DNA from: an uncultured virus (IMG/VR IMGVR_UViG_3300045119_000497)
Lineage: Duplodnaviria; Heunggongvirae; Uroviricota; Caudoviricetes
Direction: 5' to 3' (one strand)
DNA length: 20,000 bases
IMG/VR virus record: IMGVR_UViG_3300045119_000497
Both the position numbers and the translations under genes were made by a program. How positions within the stretch are numbered: the first letter of the stretch is position 1; each line of letters begins with the position of its first letter. Positions 2,283-16,539 of this stretch are shown piece after piece. The notes below the pieces were generated by a model that was not told where the DNA came from, ran no database searches, and was given only the letters and a program-made list of their open reading frames with translations.

Positions 2283-2456
2283 CTAGGCCGCCACTCGGGG
2301 TTGGTCGTTAGTTTCGCGGCCTTTGCCGAAGGCCGGCGACCGAATCGGGAGGGCTACGACTTTCGCGGTCGGTTTCGAAGCGATCTTTTCGACGGTCCAA
2401 ACCAGTGGCCGTCGGGCGCCGAGGCGAAAGGGAGTGGAGGTTTTGATCCTATTCAT
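2283..2456 (-). CDS. Small basic hypothetical protein (57 aa)
   Basis: MNRIKTSTPFRLGARRPLVWTVEKIASKPTAKVVALPIRSPAFGKGRETNDQPRVAA. Fills the gap, overlaps the upstream gene end, AGGA upstream. Confidence 0.4.
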   Translation of the reverse strand: MNRIKTSTPFRLGARRPLVWTVEKIASKPTAKVVALPIRSPAFGKGRETNDQPRVAA

Positions 2457-3036
2457 CGTCCTGGTCCTGGTGTTCGATTACGAGACCTTCGTCGTCTTTC
2501 GGCCGGATGTCCCGTTTTCCCATATTAAAGGTGATCTTCACCGGCGGATTCGCAATCGGAGTTGCGTTCTTAATCGGAGTGTGGGTCCGATCGCCGGTGT
2601 CGACCATCAAGCGCCGGAGTTCGTCGATCGGAATGTCCTTCATCTTCGTGGGGTCTTCGAGGCGTTGGATGATTTCGCCCCGTGCGAGGTCGTTGATGTC
2701 GGCGTAGTCGCGATAGGCAAGAGCGGCGCCCGAGAGGTCGATCTCCTCGATTTGGGTCCGGTAGTACTCTACGAGATCGGCGAAGGCCGGGTCGCGCTTC
2801 AGATCGCCAATGCGCTGGGCGGAGCGCCCCACTTCGATCCCCACTTCGACGTCGGACTTTCCCGCCGCCACGAGCCGCGCCGCGCGTTGATGGACTTCGC
2901 GCAGGCGTTGGACGATCGGAGGTGAGGTCAGTGGGTGGTCATTCACAGCTACAAACCTGAAGAGATCATCGGAGGTTAAATGTCTTTCGACGGTCATCAT
3001 GAAGAGGACGGGAGGTCGGCCCCGCTTTGGTAGCAT
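2449..3036 (-). CDS. HTH protein, possible terminase small subunit
   Basis: HTH-like segment HQRAARLVAAGKSDVEVGIEVGRSAQRIGDLKRDPAFADLVEYYR. Strong AAGGAGG RBS. Same strand as, and upstream of, terL. Confidence 0.6.
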   Translation of the reverse strand: MLPKRGRPPVLFMMTVERHLTSDDLFRFVAVNDHPLTSPPIVQRLREVHQRAARLVAAGKSDVEVGIEVGRSAQRIGDLKRDPAFADLVEYYRTQIEEIDLSGAALAYRDYADINDLARGEIIQRLEDPTKMKDIPIDELRRLMVDTGDRTHTPIKNATPIANPPVKITFNMGKRDIRPKDDEGLVIEHQDQDDE

Positions 3037-3259: not shown

Positions 3260-3808
3260 TTACAACTCCATCGTCTCTTTGCTCGCTGCCGGCGTCCGTT
3301 TGGTTTCGCGCTTCGGACCGGCAGTCGTACCGGCTTCAAGTGCTTCGCGGATCGTGGTGTCGTAATACTTCGCCCGGTTCTTTTCGCTCGCCGCGTTGCT
3401 CTCGATCAACTTGGTACGCGCGAGGCGATCCGCGGCGCTCATGGCCTTGATGGCCGCCGCGTCCCAGCCCTTCGCGGAGTCGGTCAATTCCGCGATCTTG
3501 TCCCGATACACCGCATCGAACGCATCGTTCGACTTGGCGCTCGGTAGCGTAGTGCCGCTCGCCGCTGCCGCTGCGGCCGCCTCCGGCGATACGCCGTTGC
3601 GGTTCGCCACGACTCGGTTGCGGAGATACTCGGCGTAACCGTGCGCCACCGCGAGCGGCGAGGTCGGCGCTACGATCTTGAACACCGCGCCGTCCTGTTC
3701 GCCGTAGGCGAAACCCTCGTGGATGCGAAAGCCGCGCGCGGCCAGCGCCGTATTCAAGTCGTCTTGTGAGAACACGAAACCCGAAGGGGTTTGATTGCCT
3801 TGTGCCAT
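3260..3808 (-). CDS. Hypothetical Ala-rich protein with C-terminal MEL tag
   Basis: GGAG RBS, 182 aa, ends ...KRETKRTPAASKETMEL. Confidence 0.8.
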   Translation of the reverse strand: MAQGNQTPSGFVFSQDDLNTALAARGFRIHEGFAYGEQDGAVFKIVAPTSPLAVAHGYAEYLRNRVVANRNGVSPEAAAAAAASGTTLPSAKSNDAFDAVYRDKIAELTDSAKGWDAAAIKAMSAADRLARTKLIESNAASEKNRAKYYDTTIREALEAGTTAGPKRETKRTPAASKETMEL

Positions 3809-4100
3809 GTTAGAAACTCCGTTTGGATTGGTGGTAGTGATCGCTGGCGATGCGCGCCAGCTCGCTCCGTTGGCCTGCGGCTATCGCGTAGCCCTTACGC
3901 CGTGCGCGATCATGGCAAGCCTTCCCTCCCGCTTCTGCTCCGGAACCGGGCTGCCCCGGTGTTGGGTAGAACCAACAAAAAGATAGTACGCGCGCGCATG
4001 TAGGATTGCCACAACTTTTTTCGTTCGCGTGTGCGATTTTTCGCGCAGCACTAGAAAGTGTTGCGGCTAGGCCACATGCGGTTTGCTGGCCCTGTCGTGG

Positions 4101-4109
4101 TGCTACAAT
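4101..4109 (+). promoter_or_regulatory. Possible extended -10 element
   Basis: TGCTACAAT, nearly identical to TGCTATAAT at 747-755. TTGCTG lies 15 bp upstream of the hexamer. Confidence 0.35.
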
Positions 4110-4444
4110 GCCCTATTTCGGATTGGCTATCGAGATACGACTTAACTCATTCCCTGCCCTCTGCGGCGTTTTCCCGTTTAACGCGAGTTCGGAGTCGCAA
4201 CTCACTCTCGCCTGACGTGTGGGGAGATACGACTCGGAGTTTCGCAGCATACATGGGGGGCACCCCCAAAGGCATACAAAAACCCGTGAGTCCGATAAGT
4301 AAATGCCCCAAGCATCATAGACAAACAATGGAATATCTTAACAGTTCTAGTATATGGGGGTCGGCCTCAGAGGGTAGATTCTACTGACTATCATCCTCGC
4401 TCGACTGCTATCCTCTCCCGACCTCAAAAACGTCTTCTTCTGAA

Positions 4445-4489
4445 AAAAATAATAGTCGAGAAAAAAGTTTTTTTCTCACAATTATTATT
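4445..4489. repeat. AT-rich imperfect palindrome in the divergence region
   Basis: AATAATAGTCGAGAAAAAA-GT-TTTTTTCTCACAATTATT. Confidence 0.65.
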
Positions 4490-4613
4490 CGGACCCCCCG
4501 TTAAGGTATGCCCGCAGGCAGGCTCCCTCACCCCCACATACTGAAACTACTAACGCAACCCGTTACTTACCTCTATTATCGCCCCCAAGCAACATATACC
4601 GGAGTGCCCTCCC

Positions 4614-5279
4614 ATGCCAATAACCCAACAACGCATGATAACTCTAGTCAAATCGTCACTATTCTACACCAATATGGTCAACGACCTGCGGAAAATACTC
4701 TACATCTATGTTTCGCAGGCCGAACGCGCGATGAAAAGCCTCGACGACTCGGACAATCTTTCCGAAAAGCAAAAGGAACAAATCACGGTGATTTGGGAAA
4801 CAATCCGCGGAATCGTAGACAGAGTCGACCCAATCCTTCCCGAAGAATTCGAAGCATATCGAAACATCATTAAGGAATCGACTCATTTCAACGCGCAACG
4901 AATAAGTCATAACAACGCCCAGGCGAGATACAATCGCCGCTTCAGGGCGAAAAAATACGTCGAAACAGGCAACAACGTCGGCGAACCAATCAAACGTCGC
5001 CCACGAGCACCGACCGAACAGGAGCAACTATTACACGAACTTCACCGACGACTTTGGTTAATAGAAGAAAAAGAATCCTGGCGAGCATCAGAGCTGATCG
5101 ACGTTATTTCAGCTACAATTCCTAAGCAATCGCCAACAGCAATTCTTAACGAATTGACTGAAACAAAGCGAATTTCCCACATTCGGGCAACAAACACTTA
5201 CGTTATTGAGAATCCAAATATACGAGGAAACGAGACAACAAATCAGACGACCGAAGAGCCTCTTACCGACACGGAATGA
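4614..5279 (+). CDS. Hypothetical protein, possible C-terminal winged helix
   Basis: GGAG upstream of the ATG, 221 aa, more AT-rich than downstream genes. WRASELIDVIS...TAILNELTETKRISH...YVI resembles a wHTH. Confidence 0.6.
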   Translation: MPITQQRMITLVKSSLFYTNMVNDLRKILYIYVSQAERAMKSLDDSDNLSEKQKEQITVIWETIRGIVDRVDPILPEEFEAYRNIIKESTHFNAQRISHNNAQARYNRRFRAKKYVETGNNVGEPIKRRPRAPTEQEQLLHELHRRLWLIEEKESWRASELIDVISATIPKQSPTAILNELTETKRISHIRATNTYVIENPNIRGNETTNQTTEEPLTDTE

Positions 5280-5340
5280 GCTATGCGTTTAACGCGGGTC
5301 TCCTATGCAAAATCAGGGTATGAACAATCCGCGAACACCG

Positions 5341-5348
5341 GCTATAAT
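5341..5348 (+). promoter_or_regulatory. -10 element for the early operon
   Basis: GCTATAAT in the intergenic gap upstream of the GAGGTG RBS of 5406. Confidence 0.5.
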
Positions 5349-5405
5349 CGAGGCCGGGCCACTCCGACCCGACTAGGCTCATGCCCCGACTAGAGGTGAC
5401 GCGAA

Positions 5406-5807
5406 ATGACCGCACCGCAAGCGCAACTCATAATCGCCTTTGACGGCGCAACCCTTCGGATCGAAGCGCCCGGCCAGAACGGCGCGCGAAAGAGGGTCGA
5501 AGGCATCGCCTTTTCCGACCTTCCAATCGAAATCCGGGCGGAACTCACCGACCAGCTTGACCGCCAGCGGACCGCTCAGCGGGCGAAACTCATGGCCACA
5601 CAGTCTCAGAACATCCAATATGTCGCCGAGACCCACAACATCGCCCTCGCGCGAAAGGTGTGGGGCAACGACGTCGCCGAGTCGCGCGTCATGCGGGCCA
5701 GGCTTCGCTACTCCAGTCCCGAAGCCGGAAACATCGACGCAAGCGGCAAGCCCAAAGCGGCGAAGCGCGAAACCACAAAGTCACTCCCGCCTCCAATGGA
5801 CCTGTGA
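5406..5807 (+). CDS. Hypothetical protein with C-terminal MDL tag
   Basis: GAGGTG RBS, ends ...KAAKRETTKSLPPPMDL. Confidence 0.8.
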   Translation: MTAPQAQLIIAFDGATLRIEAPGQNGARKRVEGIAFSDLPIEIRAELTDQLDRQRTAQRAKLMATQSQNIQYVAETHNIALARKVWGNDVAESRVMRARLRYSSPEAGNIDASGKPKAAKRETTKSLPPPMDL

Positions 5808-5815
5808 GGCCCGCC

Positions 5816-6070
5816 ATGATCCAAATCTACCGTCGCGACGGCCTTTTCCTCCTATTCGACAACATTCGCAACGCCACCTACCGCATCGCCTCCACGTCGC
5901 AACACGACGCCAAAGCGACCATTCTGCGTGCTAGTCTCGCGTCCGAAGCCGATTGGCTCGACTCCGAAACGCTCGACCGCGCCCTAAAGTGCGTTGCGCG
6001 ACAGCGCCAGCCCGAGCGTGGCACGTCTGCGACTGCGACCCCAACCCAATCCCAAGCCATGGAGCTCTAA
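5816..6070 (+). CDS. Hypothetical protein (84 aa) with C-terminal MEL tag
   Basis: ATG at 5816 after GAGG, MIQIYRRDG...TPTQSQAMEL. Confidence 0.75.
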   Translation: MIQIYRRDGLFLLFDNIRNATYRIASTSQHDAKATILRASLASEADWLDSETLDRALKCVARQRQPERGTSATATPTQSQAMEL

Positions 6071-6072
6071 CA

Positions 6073-6255
6073 ATGCAAGTCGGCATTCAAATCTACACCA
6101 AACGCGGCTTCTACGGCCCGTCCATCGAGAAGTCGATGCGCACCGTGGCCGAACTCCCGAAGGTTCTCGCGGAGGTGTTCGACGAAACACCCGACCAATG
6201 CGAGGACCAGAAGTTTCTCGACTGGACCAAAATCGAAGTGGAGATCCGGCGATGA
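6073..6255 (+). CDS. Hypothetical protein (60 aa)
   Basis: GGAG upstream, MQVGIQIYTKRG..., ATGA overlap with the next gene. Confidence 0.65.
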   Translation: MQVGIQIYTKRGFYGPSIEKSMRTVAELPKVLAEVFDETPDQCEDQKFLDWTKIEVEIRR

Positions 6256-6458
6256 CCCAAGTTCGCGAATACTTTCGTTTTCACCAAGACAAGGCCTCAT
6301 CACCATTCGACATGGTAATTGAGGAAGCAGGTCTGAACGGCGGCTTCACCTTCTATCGCGAAGAAAAGGACGGCGAAGTGTGGAACGTCAAAACCTTCGC
6401 CTACCTGTCCGAAGCCTTCGCTTACTTCGCCCAACAACTCAAAGAATGCGGGAGATAA
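6252..6458 (+). CDS. Hypothetical protein (68 aa)
   Basis: MTQVREYFRF..., GGAG RBS, translationally coupled. Confidence 0.65.
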   Translation: MTQVREYFRFHQDKASSPFDMVIEEAGLNGGFTFYREEKDGEVWNVKTFAYLSEAFAYFAQQLKECGR

Positions 6459-6463
6459 TCTCC

Positions 6464-6724
6464 ATGTCCATCTTCACCCGACGCCACTACATCTACCTTG
6501 CCAGCGTGGCGCGTGACGCTCGGCGTGAGGCGCTCGGCACGACGGAAAATCCGCTCGTCTTAGAGGGTGTCGACTTCGCCATCTCATCCCTCGCCATCGC
6601 ACTCGCGGGCGAAAGCGACGGTTTCGACAAGGACCAGTTCCTCCGCAACGTCTACGGCCCCTTTCTCGACAACGAAACCTCGGAGCATGAGAAATGTCCA
6701 GCTCTACCGACACCATCGAACTAG
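6464..6724 (+). CDS. Hypothetical phage early protein (86 aa)
   Basis: GGAG RBS. MSIFTRRHY...LAIAL...FDKDQFL resembles a common small phage family. Confidence 0.7.
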   Translation: MSIFTRRHYIYLASVARDARREALGTTENPLVLEGVDFAISSLAIALAGESDGFDKDQFLRNVYGPFLDNETSEHEKCPALPTPSN

Positions 6725-8139
6725 AAATCCAACAGCGACACGGAATTCGCCCCGGACCCTATCTGCGCGGCGTCCACCCGACTCCCAACTACCCAACCGA
6801 CTCAGCGGGAATACTCGCCGACTGGCTCGTCTCGCTTGGCGTAGATGCGATCAAAGCAACAGCGATGTCGCCCTCCGGCCGCCAGAACGCCTACAACGCC
6901 GGCCGCGAATGGGTTCGACGCAATCTCTCCGAAGACAAACCATTCGTTCCCGGTCGCCAATTCAAGCGCCACCGCGGCGTGGGGCAGATGGACCTCACCG
7001 AGGGCTTCGCCCCCAACGAAGTGATCGGACTGCTTGGCGGAACGGACACTCCAGCTCCAACTCCTGTTGGCGACGAGATGCCAACCAGCGAAGCTCTCAT
7101 CGACGCCATCGCACGCACCGCGGACCCTCTGATCGCTAAGCGCCTCACCGATGCCGAGCAGCGCCTCCAACGCGCAAGCGCAGCGGTTATCAAGTCCGAA
7201 GTGGAGCGCCAGGTCCGGCCGCAGGTCATCGCTGAGGTCGAGAAACTTAAAATCGCCGTCTTGGAGGAGACCAAAGCGAAGATCAGCGAAATCGCCACGC
7301 AAGCGGCCCAGGCGGAAACGGAACGACTAATCAACGAACGAATTCCTCGCAGGTTGGAGATCATCTCACCCCGCGGACGCAAGATCCTCGACGCCGAGCC
7401 ACGCCATGAAGCCTTCGACCGGATTTTCTTCTGGCTCGCCCTGAAGCGCCACGTCTATATCGTTGGGCCGCACGGCACTGGCAAGACCCACCTGTTCAAA
7501 CAACTCGCGCAGGCCCTTGACCTGACTTACTTCCCAATTGGCCAGACGTTAACCAAGTACGAACTCTCGGGTCACAAAGGTCCGACCGGCGAGTACATCG
7601 GCACCCTCTTGCGCGAAGCGATCGAAACCGGCGGCTTCGTCGGCATCGACGAGGGCGACACCTGGGCGGCCGCCGCGATGGTCTTTCTCAACACCCCACT
7701 AGCGAACGGCTATTGTTCCTTCCCCGACAAGGTCGTCCAGGTCCACCCCGACTTCGTTTGCGCCATCGCCGCAAACACCTGGGGCCACGGAGCGACCATG
7801 CAATATCAAGGCCGCAACCCACTCGACGCAGCCTCGCTCGACCGCTTTGCGTTCGAAGAGGTCGACTACGACGAGAACCTCGAAATCCAGCTCTACGGCA
7901 ACACGGCGTGGACCCAATACTGCCACCGAGTTCGAAAGGTCGCCCGCGAGTTGCGGATCTACGAAGCCGCCCCGTCGATGCGCGGAATTGAAATGGGGAA
8001 TTTAGCATTGGACGCAGGCGGAGACGCCGACCTCGTCCAGAAATCCGTCCTCTGGAAGGGCCTCGCCCCCGACACCGTAGCGAAGATCAAAACCCAAGCC
8101 GGCACATTCGGCAAAGTTAACATAAGAGAAGTCGCATGA
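6694..8139 (+). CDS. MoxR/CbbQ-NirQ-NorQ-type AAA+ ATPase with N-terminal coiled coil
   Basis: Walker A GPHGTGKT, Walker B VGIDEGD, sensor-1 AANT, Arg finger LDAASLDRF, 'HPDF', 'PSMR'. Confidence 0.9.
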   Translation: MSSSTDTIELEIQQRHGIRPGPYLRGVHPTPNYPTDSAGILADWLVSLGVDAIKATAMSPSGRQNAYNAGREWVRRNLSEDKPFVPGRQFKRHRGVGQMDLTEGFAPNEVIGLLGGTDTPAPTPVGDEMPTSEALIDAIARTADPLIAKRLTDAEQRLQRASAAVIKSEVERQVRPQVIAEVEKLKIAVLEETKAKISEIATQAAQAETERLINERIPRRLEIISPRGRKILDAEPRHEAFDRIFFWLALKRHVYIVGPHGTGKTHLFKQLAQALDLTYFPIGQTLTKYELSGHKGPTGEYIGTLLREAIETGGFVGIDEGDTWAAAAMVFLNTPLANGYCSFPDKVVQVHPDFVCAIAANTWGHGATMQYQGRNPLDAASLDRFAFEEVDYDENLEIQLYGNTAWTQYCHRVRKVARELRIYEAAPSMRGIEMGNLALDAGGDADLVQKSVLWKGLAPDTVAKIKTQAGTFGKVNIREVA

Positions 8140-9293
8140 ACCCGCGCCCAAATAACGCCCCCTGGCGGCTCTTGTGGCAATACGTCTGCTTATGGGATGA
8201 GGACCAGAACGGTCTCCAACCCGAGGCGAACGACGAGCCCGGTCTCCTCGAAGACCAAGACGGCGAAATCGACCCCGAAGCGGACGGCCCCGAGAACGGC
8301 GACGGCGAGGGTCTCGGCGAAGACGAAACCGAGGACGAGATCCCAATCGGCGACGAAGGCCCCGGCGACGACTACGGAATCTCCGAACCCGAACCGTCGC
8401 CGCCACAAATTCCCGGCTTCCTCTTGTTGCGAAACGACAACGGCTCCGTCGACTATCTCCGCGAATTCGCTTCGTGGTGGGACTTCGCCACTGCGGCCGG
8501 CGACGCGTCATTGACCGCGTGGCGCTCCGAGAACCGCACTTCGCAAGAGATCGACCGTGAGTCGTGGGCCGGAACCCGCAGTTTCGACGAGGCAATGGAC
8601 ATGGCCCTTCGTCGCGGCTGGCCCGAAGGCCGAGAGTTGCTGCGAGATAGCCTCGTTTCGGTCCGTCCCCGACCCAAGGTTTACGAAAGCCTCGAATTCG
8701 AAGTGGCCGGCGCGGTTCCATGCGTTCCGGTCTATTGCGCTGGCGACCCCGCGTGGATGATTTCCGACCCCGGCGCCAGCACCCGCGCAGCCAAGCCAAT
8801 CGTCCGCATCGACTACAATCACTGGGTCCACTCCGGCGTGGACATCAAGTCGATGATGCTCCGCGGCGCTGCGATCGTTTCGCTCGCCGACTCTCTGGAA
8901 CGCCAAGGCCTTTCGGTCGAACTCCGCATCATCGGCAACTCCAAGGACTTCGACAGCAGGGCCACCTTCAGATATTCTATCACCTACAAACAAGCAGGCG
9001 AACCTCTCGACTTGGATCGGGCGGCATTCGCGATTGCGCATCCAGCGTCGATGCGCCGCCTCGCCTTCTCTATCCTCGAACAACACAAGGAACTCGAACG
9101 GTCGATGCGCGGCAACTACGGCGTTCCGCTCTACGAACAAAACCCGAGCGGCGACACACGGACTTTGGACTCCATGACCGTCCTGTTCATTCCCGGCCCT
9201 CGCGGCCGCGAAACCCCCGACTCGGCAAATGCAGCGGTGACTAAAGCCGCGTCAAATCTCCTCAACCAGCTCAACGAAAGGCTTGCGGCATGA
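8136..9293 (+). CDS. Probable VWA-like partner of the AAA+ ATPase, with acidic N-terminal extension
   Basis: ATGA-coupled to the ATPase. RGAAIVSLADSLERQGLSVEL...KQAGEPLD...HPASMRRLAF...GNYG pattern. MoxR ATPases are typically paired with VWA proteins. Confidence 0.7.
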   Translation: MNPRPNNAPWRLLWQYVCLWDEDQNGLQPEANDEPGLLEDQDGEIDPEADGPENGDGEGLGEDETEDEIPIGDEGPGDDYGISEPEPSPPQIPGFLLLRNDNGSVDYLREFASWWDFATAAGDASLTAWRSENRTSQEIDRESWAGTRSFDEAMDMALRRGWPEGRELLRDSLVSVRPRPKVYESLEFEVAGAVPCVPVYCAGDPAWMISDPGASTRAAKPIVRIDYNHWVHSGVDIKSMMLRGAAIVSLADSLERQGLSVELRIIGNSKDFDSRATFRYSITYKQAGEPLDLDRAAFAIAHPASMRRLAFSILEQHKELERSMRGNYGVPLYEQNPSGDTRTLDSMTVLFIPGPRGRETPDSANAAVTKAASNLLNQLNERLAA

Positions 9294-9673
9294 CCAGGAA
9301 ACCCGAAACCCCACCCGAATCCTTCCGCTGCCCCATCGTCGGAATGAAATACTACCCCGGCGCGCTCGCGATCGTCACCAACCTCCCAGTCGGAACCCCC
9401 TTGTTCGCCCTCGCGGAACCCACCAACCCACACGACCCAAACGCCATCCAAGTTTGGATCGAAACCCGCCACATCCCACAAGTCACTCTCGATCGCGTCC
9501 CGAACTCCGGCCGGCTCGCCTCAGCGTCCGCCTGGCAACTCGGACACATCGCCCGCGAATTCGCTGCGAAACTCAAAATGATTGGGTTTCCAGAGGATTG
9601 CGAAATCGCCGGAACCCTCCAGATCGGGAACGACGGCGGAAGTCGTATCACCCTAACGAAGACCTGGAGCTAA
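9290..9673 (+). CDS. HIRAN-domain protein
   Basis: IVGMKYY...LAEPTNPHDPNAIQV...QLGHIAREFAAKL. Confidence 0.85.
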   Translation: MTRKPETPPESFRCPIVGMKYYPGALAIVTNLPVGTPLFALAEPTNPHDPNAIQVWIETRHIPQVTLDRVPNSGRLASASAWQLGHIAREFAAKLKMIGFPEDCEIAGTLQIGNDGGSRITLTKTWS

Positions 9674-9695
9674 CCCAACCTCTGGAGAAACCAAA

Positions 9696-10004
9696 ATGAC
9701 CACGAAGATCAACTCCAACGCCTTCTACACCATTCTAATGACCAACTTCGCCCTCGCCCGGGACGAGATCAAACTCGCAACCGACGAGGACGTCACCTTC
9801 TTTATCTTCTCGGTCCATTCCTACAAAGGGCCGCAAAACCCGCAAATCACCATCAAGAACGACAAATACGGCGATGAAAAGATCGAGGTCGAAGGCTCCT
9901 CACTCTCGGACCTCGTCGATGAGTTCATCCGACGGAAGAAGTTCTCCAACGCCCAGGCGAATCTTCGTCTCGGCCCGCCCCAAATCGAAGGAGAAATCTC
10001 ATGA
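9696..10004 (+). CDS. Hypothetical protein
   Basis: GGAG RBS, coupled to the next gene. Confidence 0.7.
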   Translation: MTTKINSNAFYTILMTNFALARDEIKLATDEDVTFFIFSVHSYKGPQNPQITIKNDKYGDEKIEVEGSSLSDLVDEFIRRKKFSNAQANLRLGPPQIEGEIS

Positions 10005-10399
10005 CTAAAGTCTTCATCAAACTCGACTTGAGCGTTGTCCAAGAGGCCATCAAGGCGAAGGTTCCCGCCGCCGTCGAGGACGTGCTCCGTCGCTACGACC
10101 TCCAACGCCTCATCGAAACAGCGATCACATCCGACAAAACGCCCGAGATACCAACGACACACGACAAGCCCATGCTCGAACCAACGATCTGGAGCCTAAT
10201 ATCGCCGTCACTATCCTCGCCACGGAGCATTTTCGAACAGTCTATGAACTCGGCAATTGCCGAGGCGCTCGACGAAGCGGCGACCAAGTACCTTCAATCC
10301 CACCCTGAGATCCTACAACCCGCTCTCGACCGTGCCATTCCGAAGGCCCTCGCGAAACTCAAATTTCGAATCGAGGAGGACGACAACGATGACGACTGA
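10001..10399 (+). CDS. Hypothetical protein
   Basis: AAGGAG RBS, ATGA overlap, acidic tail. Confidence 0.7.
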   Translation: MTKVFIKLDLSVVQEAIKAKVPAAVEDVLRRYDLQRLIETAITSDKTPEIPTTHDKPMLEPTIWSLISPSLSSPRSIFEQSMNSAIAEALDEAATKYLQSHPEILQPALDRAIPKALAKLKFRIEEDDNDDD

Positions 10400-10466
10400 C
10401 ACTCAGGGCCGCCCCAACGACGAGGACCTAGTCGGCATCTATCGAAAAGAAGGTTTCGTCCGATGA
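10389..10466 (+). CDS. Possible 25-aa micro-ORF
   Basis: GAGGAGG upstream, MTTDTQGRPNDEDLVGIYRKEGFVR, ATGA overlap with the next ORF. Confidence 0.35.
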   Translation: MTTDTQGRPNDEDLVGIYRKEGFVR

Positions 10467-10597
10467 TCGCCCGCGCGATCATATTCTATGTCGGCATCTG
10501 GCTCGTTCTCATCGCTGCCACACAGACCGTCGAACCAACCTCCACCACCCCCGGCTCAATCGCCGACCTCACCCTTCACGGAAAGTTTTCGAAATGA
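10463..10597 (+). CDS. Small membrane/secreted peptide (44 aa)
   Basis: MIARAIIFYVGIWLVLIAATQTVEPTSTTPGSIADLTLHGKFSK. Hydrophobic N-terminus, ATGA overlaps at both ends. Confidence 0.55.
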   Translation: MIARAIIFYVGIWLVLIAATQTVEPTSTTPGSIADLTLHGKFSK

Positions 10598-10926
10598 AAA
10601 CCCAAAGCGACCAAATCCTCGACCTCGTCAACGCAATGAACCGAGCGAAGGCGAGCGGCAAGACCGATGCCGAAAAGGCTAAGTCGAAGGCTTGGTTTGT
10701 CCTTCTCCAGAAGATTAAGGACGAATGTGACGCGACCCATTCCGAGACCGAGGAAGAATCCCTCTCGGGAACCAAACTTGAAACAGCGGACATTCTCAAC
10801 GTCCTTGCCGCCATCACCGGCTGGCACATCGGAACCTATTCCAAGAACCAAACGGGCGAAGCCATGCTTCTCCTCGCCTTCGTCGACCGTCTTAGCCAAG
10901 CTGTTGCCATGGCAAAAGGACTCTAG
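10594..10926 (+). CDS. Hypothetical protein
   Basis: 110 aa, fits the operon packing. Confidence 0.7.
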   Translation: MKTQSDQILDLVNAMNRAKASGKTDAEKAKSKAWFVLLQKIKDECDATHSETEEESLSGTKLETADILNVLAAITGWHIGTYSKNQTGEAMLLLAFVDRLSQAVAMAKGL

Positions 10927-10937
10927 GAGGAAACCCA

Positions 10938-11453
10938 ATGACCCGCTACGCCATCATCGAACCGCAAGCGCGGAAGATCCGCACGGGACTTTTCAACGAC
11001 TACCGAGACGCCGTCCGCGATGCCGGACTCAATCCCAGCGAACTCGACTTCGGAACCTGCGCTAGGTGGCCAGACGGAAGGACGCTCTCCATCATCGTCT
11101 ACGAGTTCGGCCTCATGAACGGCGACCCTTCGGCATACTTTGGCTTCAACGGAAGCCTTTACAACGGACCTGCGGTCCTCTTCATGGCCAATTCCGAAGG
11201 CGAAACCATCGACATCTCTGAGGCTCTAGTCGCGCACTTTGCCTCCGAGTCGTGTCCGCATTTCCTCTGGTTCGCTGATCTCTCCGAGGTCGAAGACGCG
11301 ATCCGACTCCGAAAGATCGCGCGCCCCCAAAGTGCCGTGAACGGAAAAGTCGTATGGCAGTGGACCGGCAAGGCGGAGAATATCGACCGGTTCAAAAGCG
11401 ACATGTCCAATGAGATGCAAAATCTCCTCAAGAAAGGAACATCCGATGTCTGA
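10938..11453 (+). CDS. Hypothetical protein (possibly DUF3846-like)
   Basis: AGGAGG RBS, IIVYEFGL...YNGPAVLF...EGETID pattern. Confidence 0.7.
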   Translation: MTRYAIIEPQARKIRTGLFNDYRDAVRDAGLNPSELDFGTCARWPDGRTLSIIVYEFGLMNGDPSAYFGFNGSLYNGPAVLFMANSEGETIDISEALVAHFASESCPHFLWFADLSEVEDAIRLRKIARPQSAVNGKVVWQWTGKAENIDRFKSDMSNEMQNLLKKGTSDV

Positions 11454-11679
11454 ATTAAAGCCCAACTACAATCACGACCTTCGGCCATCATCAGCCAATC
11501 CTGGTCCGCTCACGACCGAGCGCGTCTGGACCATTTGTGAACTCATCATCTACCGGTTCCGGGACAAGATGGCAGCCAAGGATAGCCTAGCATACAAGGA
11601 CTGTTGTACCATCGCCGACGAAGTTCGTGAAATTCGTATGGCGTGGGAACGGTACGATCGTTTTGGGAGCCAGGGATGA
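11446..11679 (+). CDS. Hypothetical protein (77 aa)
   Basis: AAAGGA RBS, MSELKPNY..., coupled to the next gene. Confidence 0.65.
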   Translation: MSELKPNYNHDLRPSSANPGPLTTERVWTICELIIYRFRDKMAAKDSLAYKDCCTIADEVREIRMAWERYDRFGSQG

Positions 11680-11969
11680 GCGCGGAACTCGTTCGACGCT
11701 ACTTCGAGGAGAAAAATCTCACGAGCCTCGTCACTTTGTTCGAAGCTTTGACCGAGCAACGTGACCGCTCAGAGCTTCTCACTCGGAGCTATCTCCATCA
11801 AATAAAACTCCTCTCGGAGAAGTTCCAAGCCATCACCGAACCCAAGACAGGCCGACCCGTGACGGAACGCGTGGAGCGTGGCGAGAGGCGTGACGCAACC
11901 GAACCACGCTCCACGAAACCCTTCGCGAAACCAGCGGCGAAACCTACCGTCGAAGCAATGGAACTTTGA
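11676..11969 (+). CDS. Hypothetical protein (97 aa) with C-terminal MEL tag
   Basis: GGAG RBS, ATGA overlap, ends ...KPAAKPTVEAMEL. Confidence 0.75.
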   Translation: MSAELVRRYFEEKNLTSLVTLFEALTEQRDRSELLTRSYLHQIKLLSEKFQAITEPKTGRPVTERVERGERRDATEPRSTKPFAKPAAKPTVEAMEL

Positions 11970-11981
11970 CGGGATGAAAAT

Positions 11982-12014
11982 GTATGCCCAAGGGGGAGAC
12001 CCCCTCCGGCATAC
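11982..12014. other. Intergenic hairpin (terminator, processing site or operator)
   Basis: GTATGCC-CA-AGGGGG-AGA-CCCCCT-CC-GGCATAC. Confidence 0.55.
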
Positions 12015-12025
12015 CAAATCAGCCC

Positions 12026-12054
12026 TTGACCCCCCTCTCATACTCCCTTACGAT
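12026..12054 (+). promoter_or_regulatory. Sigma70-type promoter
   Basis: TTGACC, 17 bp spacer, TACGAT. Confidence 0.6.
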
Positions 12055-12067
12055 AACAGGCAAGCCA

Positions 12068-12430
12068 ATGACCGACACACCTCTCGATCCAACGACAAAC
12101 CCCGATGCCCAAGAAGCCCTGTCAACGCGCTATGGCAGCGAGGCCCTGATTCTCGTGGTGTTAAAAAGTGGCAACATCGCGATCTTTGGTCGCGACTCTC
12201 AACTCCACACCATCCTCTACGACGCCCCCTCGGTCGACGAGTTGCGGCGATTGAGTCGTGAAATCGCCACGAAGTTGTTGCGCCAAAAGGTCCTCGACGC
12301 CGAATCAGCCTTCCTCGGCGAACCTTCCGACCGTCAAATGGCCCGCGACCTCCGGCGCGAGGCGAGCGGCGAACGGCGAGCAGTAAGCATTCCGCGTCCC
12401 TCCCGCTCAATCGAACCGATGGAACTATAG
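12068..12430 (+). CDS. Hypothetical protein with C-terminal MEL tag
   Basis: Start at 12068 preferred over 11984 because a hairpin and promoter lie between them. Ends ...PRPSRSIEPMEL. Confidence 0.75.
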   Translation: MTDTPLDPTTNPDAQEALSTRYGSEALILVVLKSGNIAIFGRDSQLHTILYDAPSVDELRRLSREIATKLLRQKVLDAESAFLGEPSDRQMARDLRREASGERRAVSIPRPSRSIEPMEL

Positions 12431-12442
12431 GACAAAACCCCA

Positions 12443-12712
12443 ATGATCGCCAACCAGCGCCTCACCCTCACCGAACTTGTCGACCGAGAGTCGCGAGAGA
12501 TCGCCAAAGAGATTCTCGAAAAGAGATTGGCCGAGCAAGACTTGCCGCTTCCCGAAAGCGGCATCGACATCCACATCAATGAACTTCTGTCCGTGAGTCC
12601 GCGAATCCGCGAAGCGGCTCGGGAGCGGGTGGAGTTGCGCCTCGATGCCTATTCGAAGGCCCTCAAGGCGATCGGCATCGACCCCACCCCGATCGAAGCT
12701 ATGGAACTCTGA
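12443..12712 (+). CDS. Hypothetical helical protein with C-terminal MEL tag
   Basis: AGGA RBS, ends ...GIDPTPIEAMEL. Confidence 0.8.
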   Translation: MIANQRLTLTELVDRESREIAKEILEKRLAEQDLPLPESGIDIHINELLSVSPRIREAARERVELRLDAYSKALKAIGIDPTPIEAMEL

Positions 12713-12720
12713 GTCGAGTC

Positions 12721-12951
12721 GTGTCCCTCCAATCCGAAATCGCCTACGGAATCCTCCGCGAAGCCCTTTCGTCCGAACACGGAATCCAAATTGTGATCCA
12801 CGACCCACCGACGCCGGTCCCTGCGAAATCGCTCCGGGCGAAGTCGATTCTCCTACGATTCAAGAACGAAAACCCGGACGAATTCGGCACCTTGGTCATC
12901 CGTCCCGCGCCCTACGACCCCAACAACCGTCTCTGGATCACGAAGGAATAA
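12721..12951 (+). CDS. Hypothetical protein
   Basis: GTG start, 76 aa, fills the operon gap. Confidence 0.65.
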   Translation: MSLQSEIAYGILREALSSEHGIQIVIHDPPTPVPAKSLRAKSILLRFKNENPDEFGTLVIRPAPYDPNNRLWITKE

Positions 12952-12955
12952 AACG

Positions 12956-13456
12956 ATGGCTTCGGACAAACCACTCACCATAATAACACAAGAACGACTA
13001 AAATATTGGTTAACCTATAATCCTGAGCTAGGACAATTCTATTGGAACAATGCTCCGAGACAAGGAATTAAAAAAGGTTCAATAGCTGGGGCTGCCAAGA
13101 GTGGATATTGTCATATTGGACTAGAAAAAATATCATATAGCGCGCATCGACTAGCGTGGCTATATATGACGGGTAGATGGCCAACAGATGAAATAGACCA
13201 TATCGACGGAGATGGTTTTAACAACAAATGGTCAAATCTTAGGGAGGCAACTAGATCACAGAACCAAGCGAATCGCCAATTTCAGGACATAGCAGGATTT
13301 ACCTTAATAGGAAAAAACCACTATCGAGTTAAAATAGGACACCAAGTCCTAGGAACTTTTTCTTCTGAAAAAGAAGCTCGTGCCGTATACTTAAAAGCAA
13401 GAAAAGAACGTTATGGAGAATTCAATCCAGACCATATATTGAGGGAGAAACCCTAA
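12956..13456 (+). CDS. HNH homing endonuclease with AP2-like C-terminal domain
   Basis: TQERLKYWLTYNPELGQFYW...AHRLAWLYMTGRWP...IDHIDGDGFNNKWSNLREAT..QN..N...LGTFSSEKEA...YGEF. AT-rich. Confidence 0.92.
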   Translation: MASDKPLTIITQERLKYWLTYNPELGQFYWNNAPRQGIKKGSIAGAAKSGYCHIGLEKISYSAHRLAWLYMTGRWPTDEIDHIDGDGFNNKWSNLREATRSQNQANRQFQDIAGFTLIGKNHYRVKIGHQVLGTFSSEKEARAVYLKARKERYGEFNPDHILREKP

Positions 13457-13665
13457 TGGCTTCTGATCGCCCACTAACCCGCATCTGCGTCCGGGTCTTC
13501 AAGGCGGACTACGACAAAGCCTGCGACGTGGCAGCGGCCCGAGGCGTCCCCGTCAACGAAATAATCCGCCAGGCTCTACACACCGTGATCCTCCACCTCA
13601 ACGACCTCGAACGCAAGGCTCTCGACACAACAGAACGGCCGAGACTCGTCGACGCCGCTCAATAA
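13456..13665 (+). CDS. Ribbon-helix-helix DNA-binding protein
   Basis: RICVRV strand, helix, ARGVPVNEIIRQAL. Confidence 0.7.
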   Translation: MASDRPLTRICVRVFKADYDKACDVAAARGVPVNEIIRQALHTVILHLNDLERKALDTTERPRLVDAAQ

Positions 13666-13679
13666 AAGGACCAACCCCG

Positions 13680-13940
13680 ATGCCAACCCGCTACGTCTCG
13701 AACGCCCGAACTCGCGCCGAACTCCACGCCGAGTTCCTCTCCGACCTTCAACGTCGCCTCGACGACCTGGACAAGTACCTCCGAACCCAGGTGCGAAGCG
13801 TGACCGAATCCGCGCGCATCGCCCGAGCGAGGAACGAACTCCTCGATCTCCAAGACTATTGGAAGCACATCGAACTCGCCCACGAAACCGAACCCACCAC
13901 CGCACAGCCCGGAACCCGTCTCGGACTCGGAGCCGCGTAG
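13680..13940 (+). CDS. Hypothetical coiled-coil protein
   Basis: AAAGGA RBS, 86 aa. Confidence 0.7.
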   Translation: MPTRYVSNARTRAELHAEFLSDLQRRLDDLDKYLRTQVRSVTESARIARARNELLDLQDYWKHIELAHETEPTTAQPGTRLGLGAA

Positions 13941-14288
13941 ATGCCCTTCCAACCAAACGAAAACTTGACCGCCGCCCTTCGAGGCACGCTCCGAATCGTC
14001 GAAGCGGAAGCGAAACGTGAAGTCCAAGTTCCGAGTCCCGAACAACCCATCCCAACCGGCCCGTCACCGCTCTCCGAAGTCGAGGCCAACTCTCTCGACG
14101 AAGAGATCGACCGAATCAACCAACATTTCATCGACGGAACCCCCGAGAAGATCACCGACGACGCACTCGACCGCGCCATCGACCGCTTTCGGGCCGAGGC
14201 ACTCAAGTGGGAACAGGACGAACAAACCAAAAAGTCCAAGGCCCGGACCACCACCAAGCGACTTCATGTCGAGGCGATGGAACTCTAA
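13941..14288 (+). CDS. Hypothetical protein with C-terminal MEL tag
   Basis: GGAG RBS, ends ...KKSKARTTTKRLHVEAMEL. Confidence 0.8.
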   Translation: MPFQPNENLTAALRGTLRIVEAEAKREVQVPSPEQPIPTGPSPLSEVEANSLDEEIDRINQHFIDGTPEKITDDALDRAIDRFRAEALKWEQDEQTKKSKARTTTKRLHVEAMEL

Positions 14289-15996: not shown

Positions 15997-16539
15997 ATGA
16001 CCGACGAAACCAACCCTCTCTCGCGAACCTACCACAACCACAAAATCGAATTCCATCCCTCGGACCTGAAGTTCCACGTCTCCGGCCCCGAGTTCGAACA
16101 CTTTAAGGAATCCTATTGTACGTTCCCGTCCTTTGACGAGGCGCGCTCCCAGATCGACAAACTGGTCGACGACGCCGCCAAGTTCAAGGCTCAGAACTCA
16201 AAGTTCGAGGCACGGGTCTGCGACGAACACGGAAACCTGACAACCATCACCGGAATAAACCGCTCCACCGGTCGCATCCAAGGCGTCGACACCCGCTACA
16301 TCTATCCCGATGTCGAATGGGTCGTCACGGATCTACGGCGCTACGATGTCCTCTGGACCGAACTCAAACAGATCGAAAACCGAATCTCGCCCCTACGAAT
16401 CAATACCGGACAGACTTCCAGCCGAATCGCCGCTGACGACTACCCACGTCGTCTCGAAGCCCTATCGAAGTCTCTCAACGAGAAACTTGAGCTGGCGAAA
16501 CAACAAACGCCGGCCGAAATTGTCGAATTGAAAGCCTGA
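15997..16539 (+). CDS. Hypothetical protein
   Basis: AAAGGA RBS, 180 aa. Confidence 0.75.
   Translation: MTDETNPLSRTYHNHKIEFHPSDLKFHVSGPEFEHFKESYCTFPSFDEARSQIDKLVDDAAKFKAQNSKFEARVCDEHGNLTTITGINRSTGRIQGVDTRYIYPDVEWVVTDLRRYDVLWTELKQIENRISPLRINTGQTSSRIAADDYPRRLEALSKSLNEKLELAKQQTPAEIVELKA

Follow-up and report, generated by a model that had tools for sequence, protein, structure and literature searches.

A 20,000-nucleotide (nt) stretch of DNA from an uncultured Caudoviricetes virus (IMG/VR record IMGVR_UViG_3300045119_000497), referred to here at its full length as the window, carries genes for a terminase, HNH endonucleases, an AAA_5 ATPase, a DUF7192 protein, a HIRAN domain protein, a PD-(D/E)XK nuclease, ERF, a CHC2 primase zinc ribbon, a DNA methylase, and a UDG-like protein whose gene is cut by the window end. 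We analyzed a short peptide tail, M-[ED]-L (M[ED]L), that stands directly before the stop codon in seven open reading frames (ORFs) of the window (Table 1). An earlier examination of the letters alone (the sequence-only reading) had proposed that these seven ORFs encode unrelated proteins addressed to one hub. All seven were present, with ends as described, and apart from the tail the proteins were unrelated to one another, as claimed (pairwise BLASTP E > 0.05 throughout). None of the seven belonged to a Pfam family, PHROGs returned nothing informative for them, and the ESM Atlas gave no usable feature match; the Atlas's own model was poor and had only unrelated helical matches with low template-modeling scores. 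Tagged gene 1 is the first gene in a minus-strand operon running to the terminase large subunit, and tagged gene 7 lies directly upstream of the PD-(D/E)XK nuclease gene in the window and in the related loci L013 and L010.

Table 1. Tagged genes of the window and other genes discussed with them
Feature	Position	Strand	Length	Protein end	M[ED]L encoded at	Remarks
Tagged gene 1	3260..3808	-	182 aa	..KETMEL	3263-3271	
Tagged gene 2	5406..5807	+	133 aa	..PPPMDL	5796-5804	
Tagged gene 3	5816..6070	+	84 aa	..SQAMEL	6059-6067	longest frame from 5660
Tagged gene 4	11643..11969	+	108 aa	..VEAMEL	11958-11966	start 11676 in the sequence-only reading
Tagged gene 5	11984..12430	+	148 aa	..IEPMEL	12419-12427	start 12068 in the sequence-only reading
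Tagged gene 6	12443..12712	+	89 aa	..IEAMEL	12701-12709	
Tagged gene 7	13941..14288	+	115 aa	..VEAMEL	14277-14285	
AAA_5 (MoxR-type) ATPase	6694..8139	+				Pfam AAA_5, E 4.5e-7
DUF7192 protein, AAA_5 partner	8136..9293	+				Pfam DUF7192, E 2e-25
12721-family member	12721..12951	+				untagged here; ends right after conserved core (alignment A5)

The frequency of the tail was compared with chance. Simple ORF rules, which are heuristic, gave 33 complete gene ends in the window (the sequence-only reading had estimated about 38 genes), and M[ED]L stood at 7 of these 33. Composition predicts 2.7e-4 per end (binomial P 4e-19). On both strands and in all six frames of the 20 kb, eight nonamers encode M[ED]L, and seven of them abut a stop. 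A frequency far above chance, as had been claimed, was thereby confirmed. Inside proteins the motif occurs once in 5490 residues; this eighth copy lies in the disordered N-terminal linker of the AAA_5 ATPase, and because of it all eight of the M[DE]L occurrences in the window are part of the tail system. The linkers that precede the tails were also characterized. Residues -25 to -6 carry a net charge of +1 to +4 in all seven tagged proteins, which agrees with the claim of a Lys/Arg/Pro/Thr-rich, probably disordered linker before the tail; the range is -5 to +5 in the 26 untagged proteins. Two untagged proteins have motif-like ends: the product of 6073-6255 ends ..KIEVEIRR and that of 15997-16539 ends ..AEIVELKA, in each case a motif-like string with two residues after it. 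Orthologues of the second do not retain the string. These ends may be chance or decayed copies.

Codon usage in the tails bears on the level at which selection acts. The leucine is encoded by CTC in three genes and by TTG, CTG, CTT, and CTA in one each, the acidic residue by GAA in four, GAG in two, and GAC in one, and the -4 codon takes seven different forms in the seven genes, its second base always being C. The stops are TAA (three genes), TGA (three), and TAG (one). The claim of codon variation and of the use of all three stops therefore holds, with five Leu codons and three Glu/Asp codons. The differences among the seven genes are concentrated at synonymous sites, and therefore selection acts on the peptide.

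The tail was also compared between lineages. Related viral contigs were retrieved with the family of tagged gene 7, DUF7192, and the methylase as anchors; the relatives are metagenomic viral contigs, of each of which 12 to 21 kb was covered. Seven further lineages (8 loci) share the gene order of the window, and five tagged families (genes 2, 4, 5, 6, and 7) have orthologues in other lineages. The tail variant is lineage specific and is common to all carriers of a given lineage; written as patterns, the variants are [IV][DE]I[DE]L, [VI][LM][ED]I, I[DE]ITL, LDLDL, A[LI]DL, [IV][DE]VEI.., and IDIDL. Tails conform to [AV][IV][DE]I[DE]L in L018 and L019. They read AVMEL, VVLEI, PILEI, QVLDI (three times), and EIMDI in L020; AIAITL, VIDIDL, VIDITL (twice), AIEITL, and IIDITL in L021; ILDLDL, LDLDLDLDL, LELDLDL, and AMDLDL in L022; AALDL, LAIDL, LALDL, EIDL, and LAMDL in L023; and AIDIDL (three times), PIDIDL, ALEIDL, and AIDIGDLFQ in L048. 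L010 has VIEVEIGDI, VIDVEIPEF, and two IEIEIP.. copies about 19 residues before the end. Thr occupies position -2 in five of the six L021 tails, and Ile occupies position -1 in six of the seven L020 tails; these are parallel changes in unrelated proteins.

The same pattern was seen family by family. Tagged gene 4 has orthologues in eight related loci (seven lineages), each with the tail of its own lineage. Orthologues of tagged gene 2 end ..AIEIDL in L018, ..VVLEI in L020, and ..ILDLDL in L022, and those of tagged gene 1 end ..DAVMEL in L020 and ..SAALDL in L023. For tagged gene 3 the sole orthologue found, in L020, ends ..PILEI; L013 has a tagged ORF at the equivalent position without sequence similarity. 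In an unbiased tally covering the final three residues of every open frame of at least 45 aa in six frames, the lineage's tail ranked first among the endings, both in the window and in every one of seven close relatives anchored by DUF7192 (MEL, six times; ITL, six times; LDL, four times; IDL, IEL, or LDI, three times). The exception is L010, in which the motif lies a few residues in from the end. The same tally of 19 distant DUF7192 loci gave low-complexity noise only, with no tails above chance. Eleven untagged conserved families, used as controls, had no tail, except that the 13456 family has gained VIDITL in L021, and the tail/structural module of the L010 phage (G001) likewise carried none of these peptides. 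Co-variation of the tail among homologues, a point raised by the sequence-only reading, was thus borne out as parallel change on all carrier families, lineage by lineage. Because the tail changes in parallel on all carriers, the comparison indicates one co-evolving partner.

Retention of the tail was likewise observed, in three families from protein collections, in which the tip is kept while the linkers vary. Six other homologues of the tagged gene 1 protein (59 to 78% identical by BLASTP) end in EAQEL, ESMEL, QAEEL, ESIEL, EAMKF, and ESEEL, and four homologues of the tagged gene 2 protein end in PPPMEL, PEPMEL, EIMEL, and AALKL, with insertions and deletions in their linkers. An exhaustive search with the tagged gene 7 protein yielded 44 representatives (27 to 55% identical), which were anchored at the C terminus. 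Among these, position -1 is hydrophobic in 38, -2 acidic in 29, -3 hydrophobic in 34, -4 acidic in 22, and -5 hydrophobic in 20, and Lys or Arg is the commonest residue at most positions from -11 to -22. In this family the conserved unit runs from a basic tract into [EQ]-A-[LIM]-[DE]-L, after which two further residues may stand. The conserved unit is thus wider than "MEL" and comprises a basic tract and then a small/polar, a hydrophobic, an acidic, and a hydrophobic residue. Searches with single proteins and locus searches based on alignment A1 gave short spurious matches only, and a degenerate DNA pattern for the tail gave three chance matches, none at an ORF end.

Members of the 12721 family, untagged in the window, are tagged in relatives (L018, ..EVEIDL; L019, ..IIPIDL; L023, ..DEIDL; L048, ..ALEIDL), where the orthologues run on into a linker and the lineage's tail. 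The window gene stops after the conserved core and is directly followed by an HNH endonuclease gene (12956-13456, Pfam HNH_3) that the relatives lack, and for these reasons its tail was probably lost; the HNH insertion may have removed it. Two kinds of DNA enzyme carry the local tail variant elsewhere: an HNH_3 homing endonuclease in L048 (15720-16292) ends ..HAIDIDL, and a ParB_N plus N6_N4_Mtase methylase in L121 (8885-10234; also in L114) ends ..GQIDLDL. These carriers suggest that the gain of a few codons is enough for a newcomer to enter the tagged set.

The internal copy in the AAA_5 ATPase gives information on where the motif can be placed. It consists of M99-D100-L101 (nt 6988-6996), follows a basic stretch, and lies ~380 residues from the end of the protein. 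In the structural model, a helical N-domain (35-77) and a long helix (135-216) flank residues 82 to 131, for which the predicted local distance difference test (pLDDT) score is 32 to 40. This copy follows the lineage's tail (alignment A7), reading ..GQMDL in the window, ..NIDLD in L018 and L019, ..VLDLD in L020, ..IDIDLD in L021, and ..GIDLD in L023. In addition, the motif stands 1 to 4 residues before the end in L018, L019, and L048 and about 19 before it in L010. The sequence-only reading had proposed selection on the free C terminus. Selection at the level of the peptide stands, but a free end is not generally required, given the internal AAA copy and the trailing residues. Because of these internal copies and trailing residues, the behavior of the tail is that of a linear docking motif situated close to the end, to judge from its positions, rather than that of a C-terminal degron-type signal or another ligand of free-carboxylate readers such as PDZ domains. 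In named phages, the AAA protein had only distant matches, from phages of Rhizobium, Staphylococcus, Listeria, and Mycobacterium; these were below 60% identity, and 0 of 426 covered 80% of the query. Its homologues in named phages bear the annotation "porphyrin biosynthesis protein."

The AAA_5 ATPase and its DUF7192 partner were examined as a candidate receptor. The DUF7192 protein of the window has an acidic, disordered N-terminal extension of about 108 aa (30 Asp plus Glu, 3 Lys plus Arg). Its model (pLDDT 79) places residues ~217 to 385 in a VWA-type fold, and VIA-align, with moderate Z values, matched it to Rea1-MIDAS (Z 7.0), MDN1-MIDAS (6.8), and the NorD VWA domain (6.6), followed almost only by VWA domains; the top Foldseek match was the NorD VWA domain (E 1.9e-3). 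Because the model matches VWA domains best and the gene lies beside that of an AAA_5 ATPase, the pair is predicted to be a MoxR/VWA-type machine. Such "CobS/CobT-like" AAA+/VWA pairs are widespread in phages and have no known role. The sequences of the DUF7192, AAA, and 16589 proteins, searched against solved structures, gave nothing useful. A genome-contig search with alignment A4 gave one weak match, a Hyphomonadaceae metagenome-assembled genome without tails, and DUF7192 was found neither in that assembly nor in 401 sampled genomes of the same phylum.

The MIDAS site of DUF7192 was located from the model strands by eye rather than by residue-level superposition. After strand 1, D226 is conserved in 54 of 58 sequences, N228 in 41 (Ser in 7), and W230 in 32 (Ser in 8); after the last strand, where Asp is expected, Pro353 is present in 47 of 58. 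An intact MIDAS (DxSxS, T, D) is thus not kept in DUF7192, and a MIDAS-mediated (metal) grip of the tail is not supported, since only the first Asp is retained. For NorQD, it is proposed that acidic residues of the substrate are held by the MIDAS (PMC13036017). As in NorQ/NorD and Rea1-MIDAS, an AAA_5 protein adjoins a partner of VWA fold here, and the tail presents an acidic residue between hydrophobic ones; unlike in those systems, DUF7192 is without DxSxS..T..D, and the pair also occurs in tail-less phages.

The distribution of the pair was compared with that of the tail. The AAA/DUF7192 pair is present in all six tail-bearing loci that cover the region, but also in all 19 tail-less loci. 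A polyacidic DUF7192 extension (88 to 226 aa; net charge, -18 to -73) is confined to tail-bearing lineages; it occurs in six of six tail-bearing relatives, and 17 of 19 tail-less phages have 9 to 33 neutral residues at the DUF7192 N terminus instead. These links between pair and tail, the acidic extension and the internal AAA motif, belong to one clade and count as a single event.

The replication module of the window and its relatives comprises a UDG-like protein, a family A polymerase, a DUF3987 helicase, and a CHC2 primase, with proteins of the relatives matching DNA_pol_A, DUF3987, Zn_ribbon_DnaG, and UDG-like families. No clamp family was matched in Pfam among 29 + 26 + 20 proteins scanned (genomes partly covered), and by gene content the replisome appears to be T7-like, without a recognizable clamp. 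No protease gene was seen among the proteins of the regions scanned, and Rfam and tRNA scans were empty. No DNA near-identical or related to the window was found in named phages, and the exact window DNA had no match in viral contigs.

Several neighboring features were recorded. The UDG-like protein directly upstream of the family A polymerase has a conserved ..LKRDE end in L046, L047, and L048 (about 11400-13700). Between the divergent operons of the window, ~800 nt (3808-4614) are without a convincing ORF and probably form a control region; GC content is lower here (0.485 at 4001-5000), and a 17-nt direct repeat, 88% identical, lies at 4306 and 4583. Two conserved minus-strand genes, 1813-2271 and 2449-3036, stand between tagged gene 1 and the terminase large subunit. 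By eye, the former has a D..E-x-K nuclease-like motif and the latter, for which Pfam was empty, resembles a small terminase or helix-turn-helix protein.

We consider it likely that the tail is a short linear docking motif by which phage proteins, otherwise unrelated but forming a fixed set, are tethered to one co-evolving receptor. The motif would consist of a Lys/Arg/Pro-rich flexible tract followed, at or near the C terminus, by a small/polar, a hydrophobic, an acidic, and a hydrophobic residue. Its clients in the window would be the seven small proteins and, through the internal copy, the MoxR-type AAA_5 ATPase; those of relatives would also include the homing HNH endonuclease and the ParB/DNA methylase. 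The alternating hydrophobic/acidic pattern would most likely fit into a hydrophobic groove, either as an extended strand or as a short amphipathic segment, and the basic tract may add electrostatic affinity for DNA or for an acidic surface, for example, the polyacidic extension of DUF7192. Those clients that can be identified act on DNA, and the replisome is T7-like and clamp-less; for these reasons the receptor may be located on phage DNA during its replication or within the AAA/VWA machine. The single hub of the sequence-only reading stands in part: a common partner is strongly supported by the retention of the tail in homologues and by its parallel change, and the hubs named there (protease, chaperone, RNA polymerase, replisome, or capsid) are candidates only.

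Several observations weigh against docking on one receptor or against placing that receptor in the AAA/DUF7192 pair. The relatives are all uncultured viral contigs of one clade, so that the lineages are not fully independent. Five more distant, methylase-bearing loci (L078, L118, L115, L082, and L121) have three to five similar tails each, but these are candidate lineages only, in which the orthology of the carriers is putative. The pair is also present in 19 of 19 tail-less loci, and it was not found in tail-bearing L010 (a 37.6-kb record, 54% complete), where synteny would put it past the contig end. Docking of the internal AAA motif in cis was not predicted by the model. Finally, L021-specific loss of a conserved Lys or Arg was seen in 0 columns in each of four candidate receptor families, AAA, DUF7192, 1813, and 2449.

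A more specific proposal, which we regard as tentative and rather doubtful, is that the phage's MoxR-type AAA+/VWA machine uses the tail as a code for addressing its substrates. The basic tracts would be captured by the clade-specific polyacidic arm of DUF7192, and the hydrophobic-acidic tip would be read by a groove on the AAA/VWA complex; the internal copy in the ATPase itself would act as a tether or pseudo-substrate. DNA-handling proteins of a defined set could in this way be remodeled or loaded by the machine on phage DNA during replication.

Four other explanations of the tail were weighed. One that we judge unlikely dispenses with a separate receptor and has the carriers co-assemble with each other: their basic tracts and acidic-hydrophobic tips, together with the polyacidic DUF7192 extension, would form strand zippers or a charge-driven condensate, such as a replication compartment. 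The association of the polyacidic extension with tail-bearing relatives, the basic tract on every carrier, and the suitability of the alternating pattern for strand pairing all speak for it. However, charge does not need a precise tip or residue-specific parallel changes such as Ile at -1 in L020 and Thr at -2 in L021, and the correlation with the acidic extension, coming from one clade, amounts to one event.

It is quite unlikely that the tail is a shared degron through which a host or phage protease removes a set of early proteins on schedule. Such a signal would explain the position at the extreme C terminus in all seven window cases, the flexible linker before it, and the terminal hydrophobic residue kept in 38 of 44 homologues of the tagged gene 7 protein. 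A free carboxylate beside the motif is not needed, however, because one copy lies within the AAA linker and copies in relatives stand 1 to 19 residues from the end. The ends of ssrA-type tags are nonpolar, and position -2 of the present tail is acidic. Rapid lineage-specific change would be unexpected if the reader were a conserved host protease, and the regions scanned showed no protease gene.

Recruitment of phage DNA enzymes by the host sliding clamp, with the tails as its ligands, appears very unlikely. Some clients are DNA enzymes, and the hydrophobic-x-hydrophobic-x-hydrophobic ends of relatives resemble QVELEF(D), the C terminus of Escherichia coli Pol III alpha, in which the beta-clamp motif (QVELEF) has the same alternating pattern as the tail. 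According to PMC11139829, beta-clamp-binding motifs (QL[SD]LF and variants) of polymerases and repair proteins are, like the tail, short, located at disordered ends of unrelated proteins, often C-terminal and occasionally internal, and directed to one hub; they may be C-terminal, N-terminal, or internal, with the free carboxylate contributing. The same review gives Gln as their most critical residue (PMC11139829). In the tails, that defining Gln is not conserved: it stands at -5 in one of the seven window tails, and in the 44 homologues of the tagged gene 7 protein it falls outside the five commonest residues at -5, -6, or -7. The hydrophobic positions of the clamp motif (2, 4, and last) fit the relatives' A-V-D-I-E-L and L-D-L-D-L, but at position 2, for which the clamp motif calls for a hydrophobic residue, the window's V-E-A-M-E-L has Glu. 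The tails also diverge fast between related phages, whereas the pocket of the sliding clamp is conserved, and the replisome is T7-like.

A nucleic-acid signal at gene ends (ribosome binding site, translational coupling, terminator, or recombination linker) is scarcely credible: the next start codon does lie within 1 to 15 nt of six of the seven genes and ATGGAG includes GGAG, but GAA in four of the seven removes GGAG, the spacing varies over that whole range, the minus-strand tagged gene has no gene for 224 nt downstream, variation is mostly synonymous, orthologues in other lineages encode different peptides of the same chemistry, the internal AAA copy is 380 codons away from a stop, and there was no Rfam match. 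On the first two of these grounds and the synonymous variation, a Shine-Dalgarno or coupling signal was rejected.

The docking motif favored here can be set beside known shared peptides. In T4 and RB69, gp43, gp33, and gp55, which are unrelated in function, have in common a C-terminal peptide that fits into the phage-encoded gp45 clamp. Unlike in that system, no clamp gene was detected in the available regions, and the chemistry of the motif differs. With respect to encapsulin-type cargo peptides, the structural module of G001 is without tails here, and one carrier (tagged gene 1) heads the terminase operon. In T7, acidic tails at the C termini of the gp4 primase-helicase and of gp2.5, which binds single-stranded DNA, compete for basic patches of the gp5 polymerase/thioredoxin complex, as stated in bioRxiv 10.64898/2026.05.20.726333. 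Like T7, the present phages have a family A polymerase and primase/helicase and no recognizable clamp. T7 has two carriers with long polyacidic tails (17 residues in gp4), and here there are eight or more carriers. Unlike in T7, the tip has one to three acidic residues alternating with hydrophobic ones and follows a basic, not an acidic, tract; in the 44 homologues of the tagged gene 7 protein, only -2 and -4 are commonly acidic. Shared docking peptides are of a known kind, and the present tail matches none of the definitions compared (clamp Gln, polyacidic tail, free C terminus, and MIDAS ligand). No description of such a shared-tail system in phages was found in the literature searched, which is not proof of absence.

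Most early genes of uncultured phages are without known function, and the tag would link eight or more of them as clients of one receptor. A list of unknowns would thereby become one testable network, and the hub would reveal the process common to all carriers. The lineages, which have replaced the tag in parallel, offer a clean natural experiment on how a peptide and its receptor co-evolve. Lineage-specific tags could explain limited exchange of gene modules between related phages, and the HNH endonuclease and DNA methylase that bear the local tag suggest that entry into the network takes the gain of a few codons.

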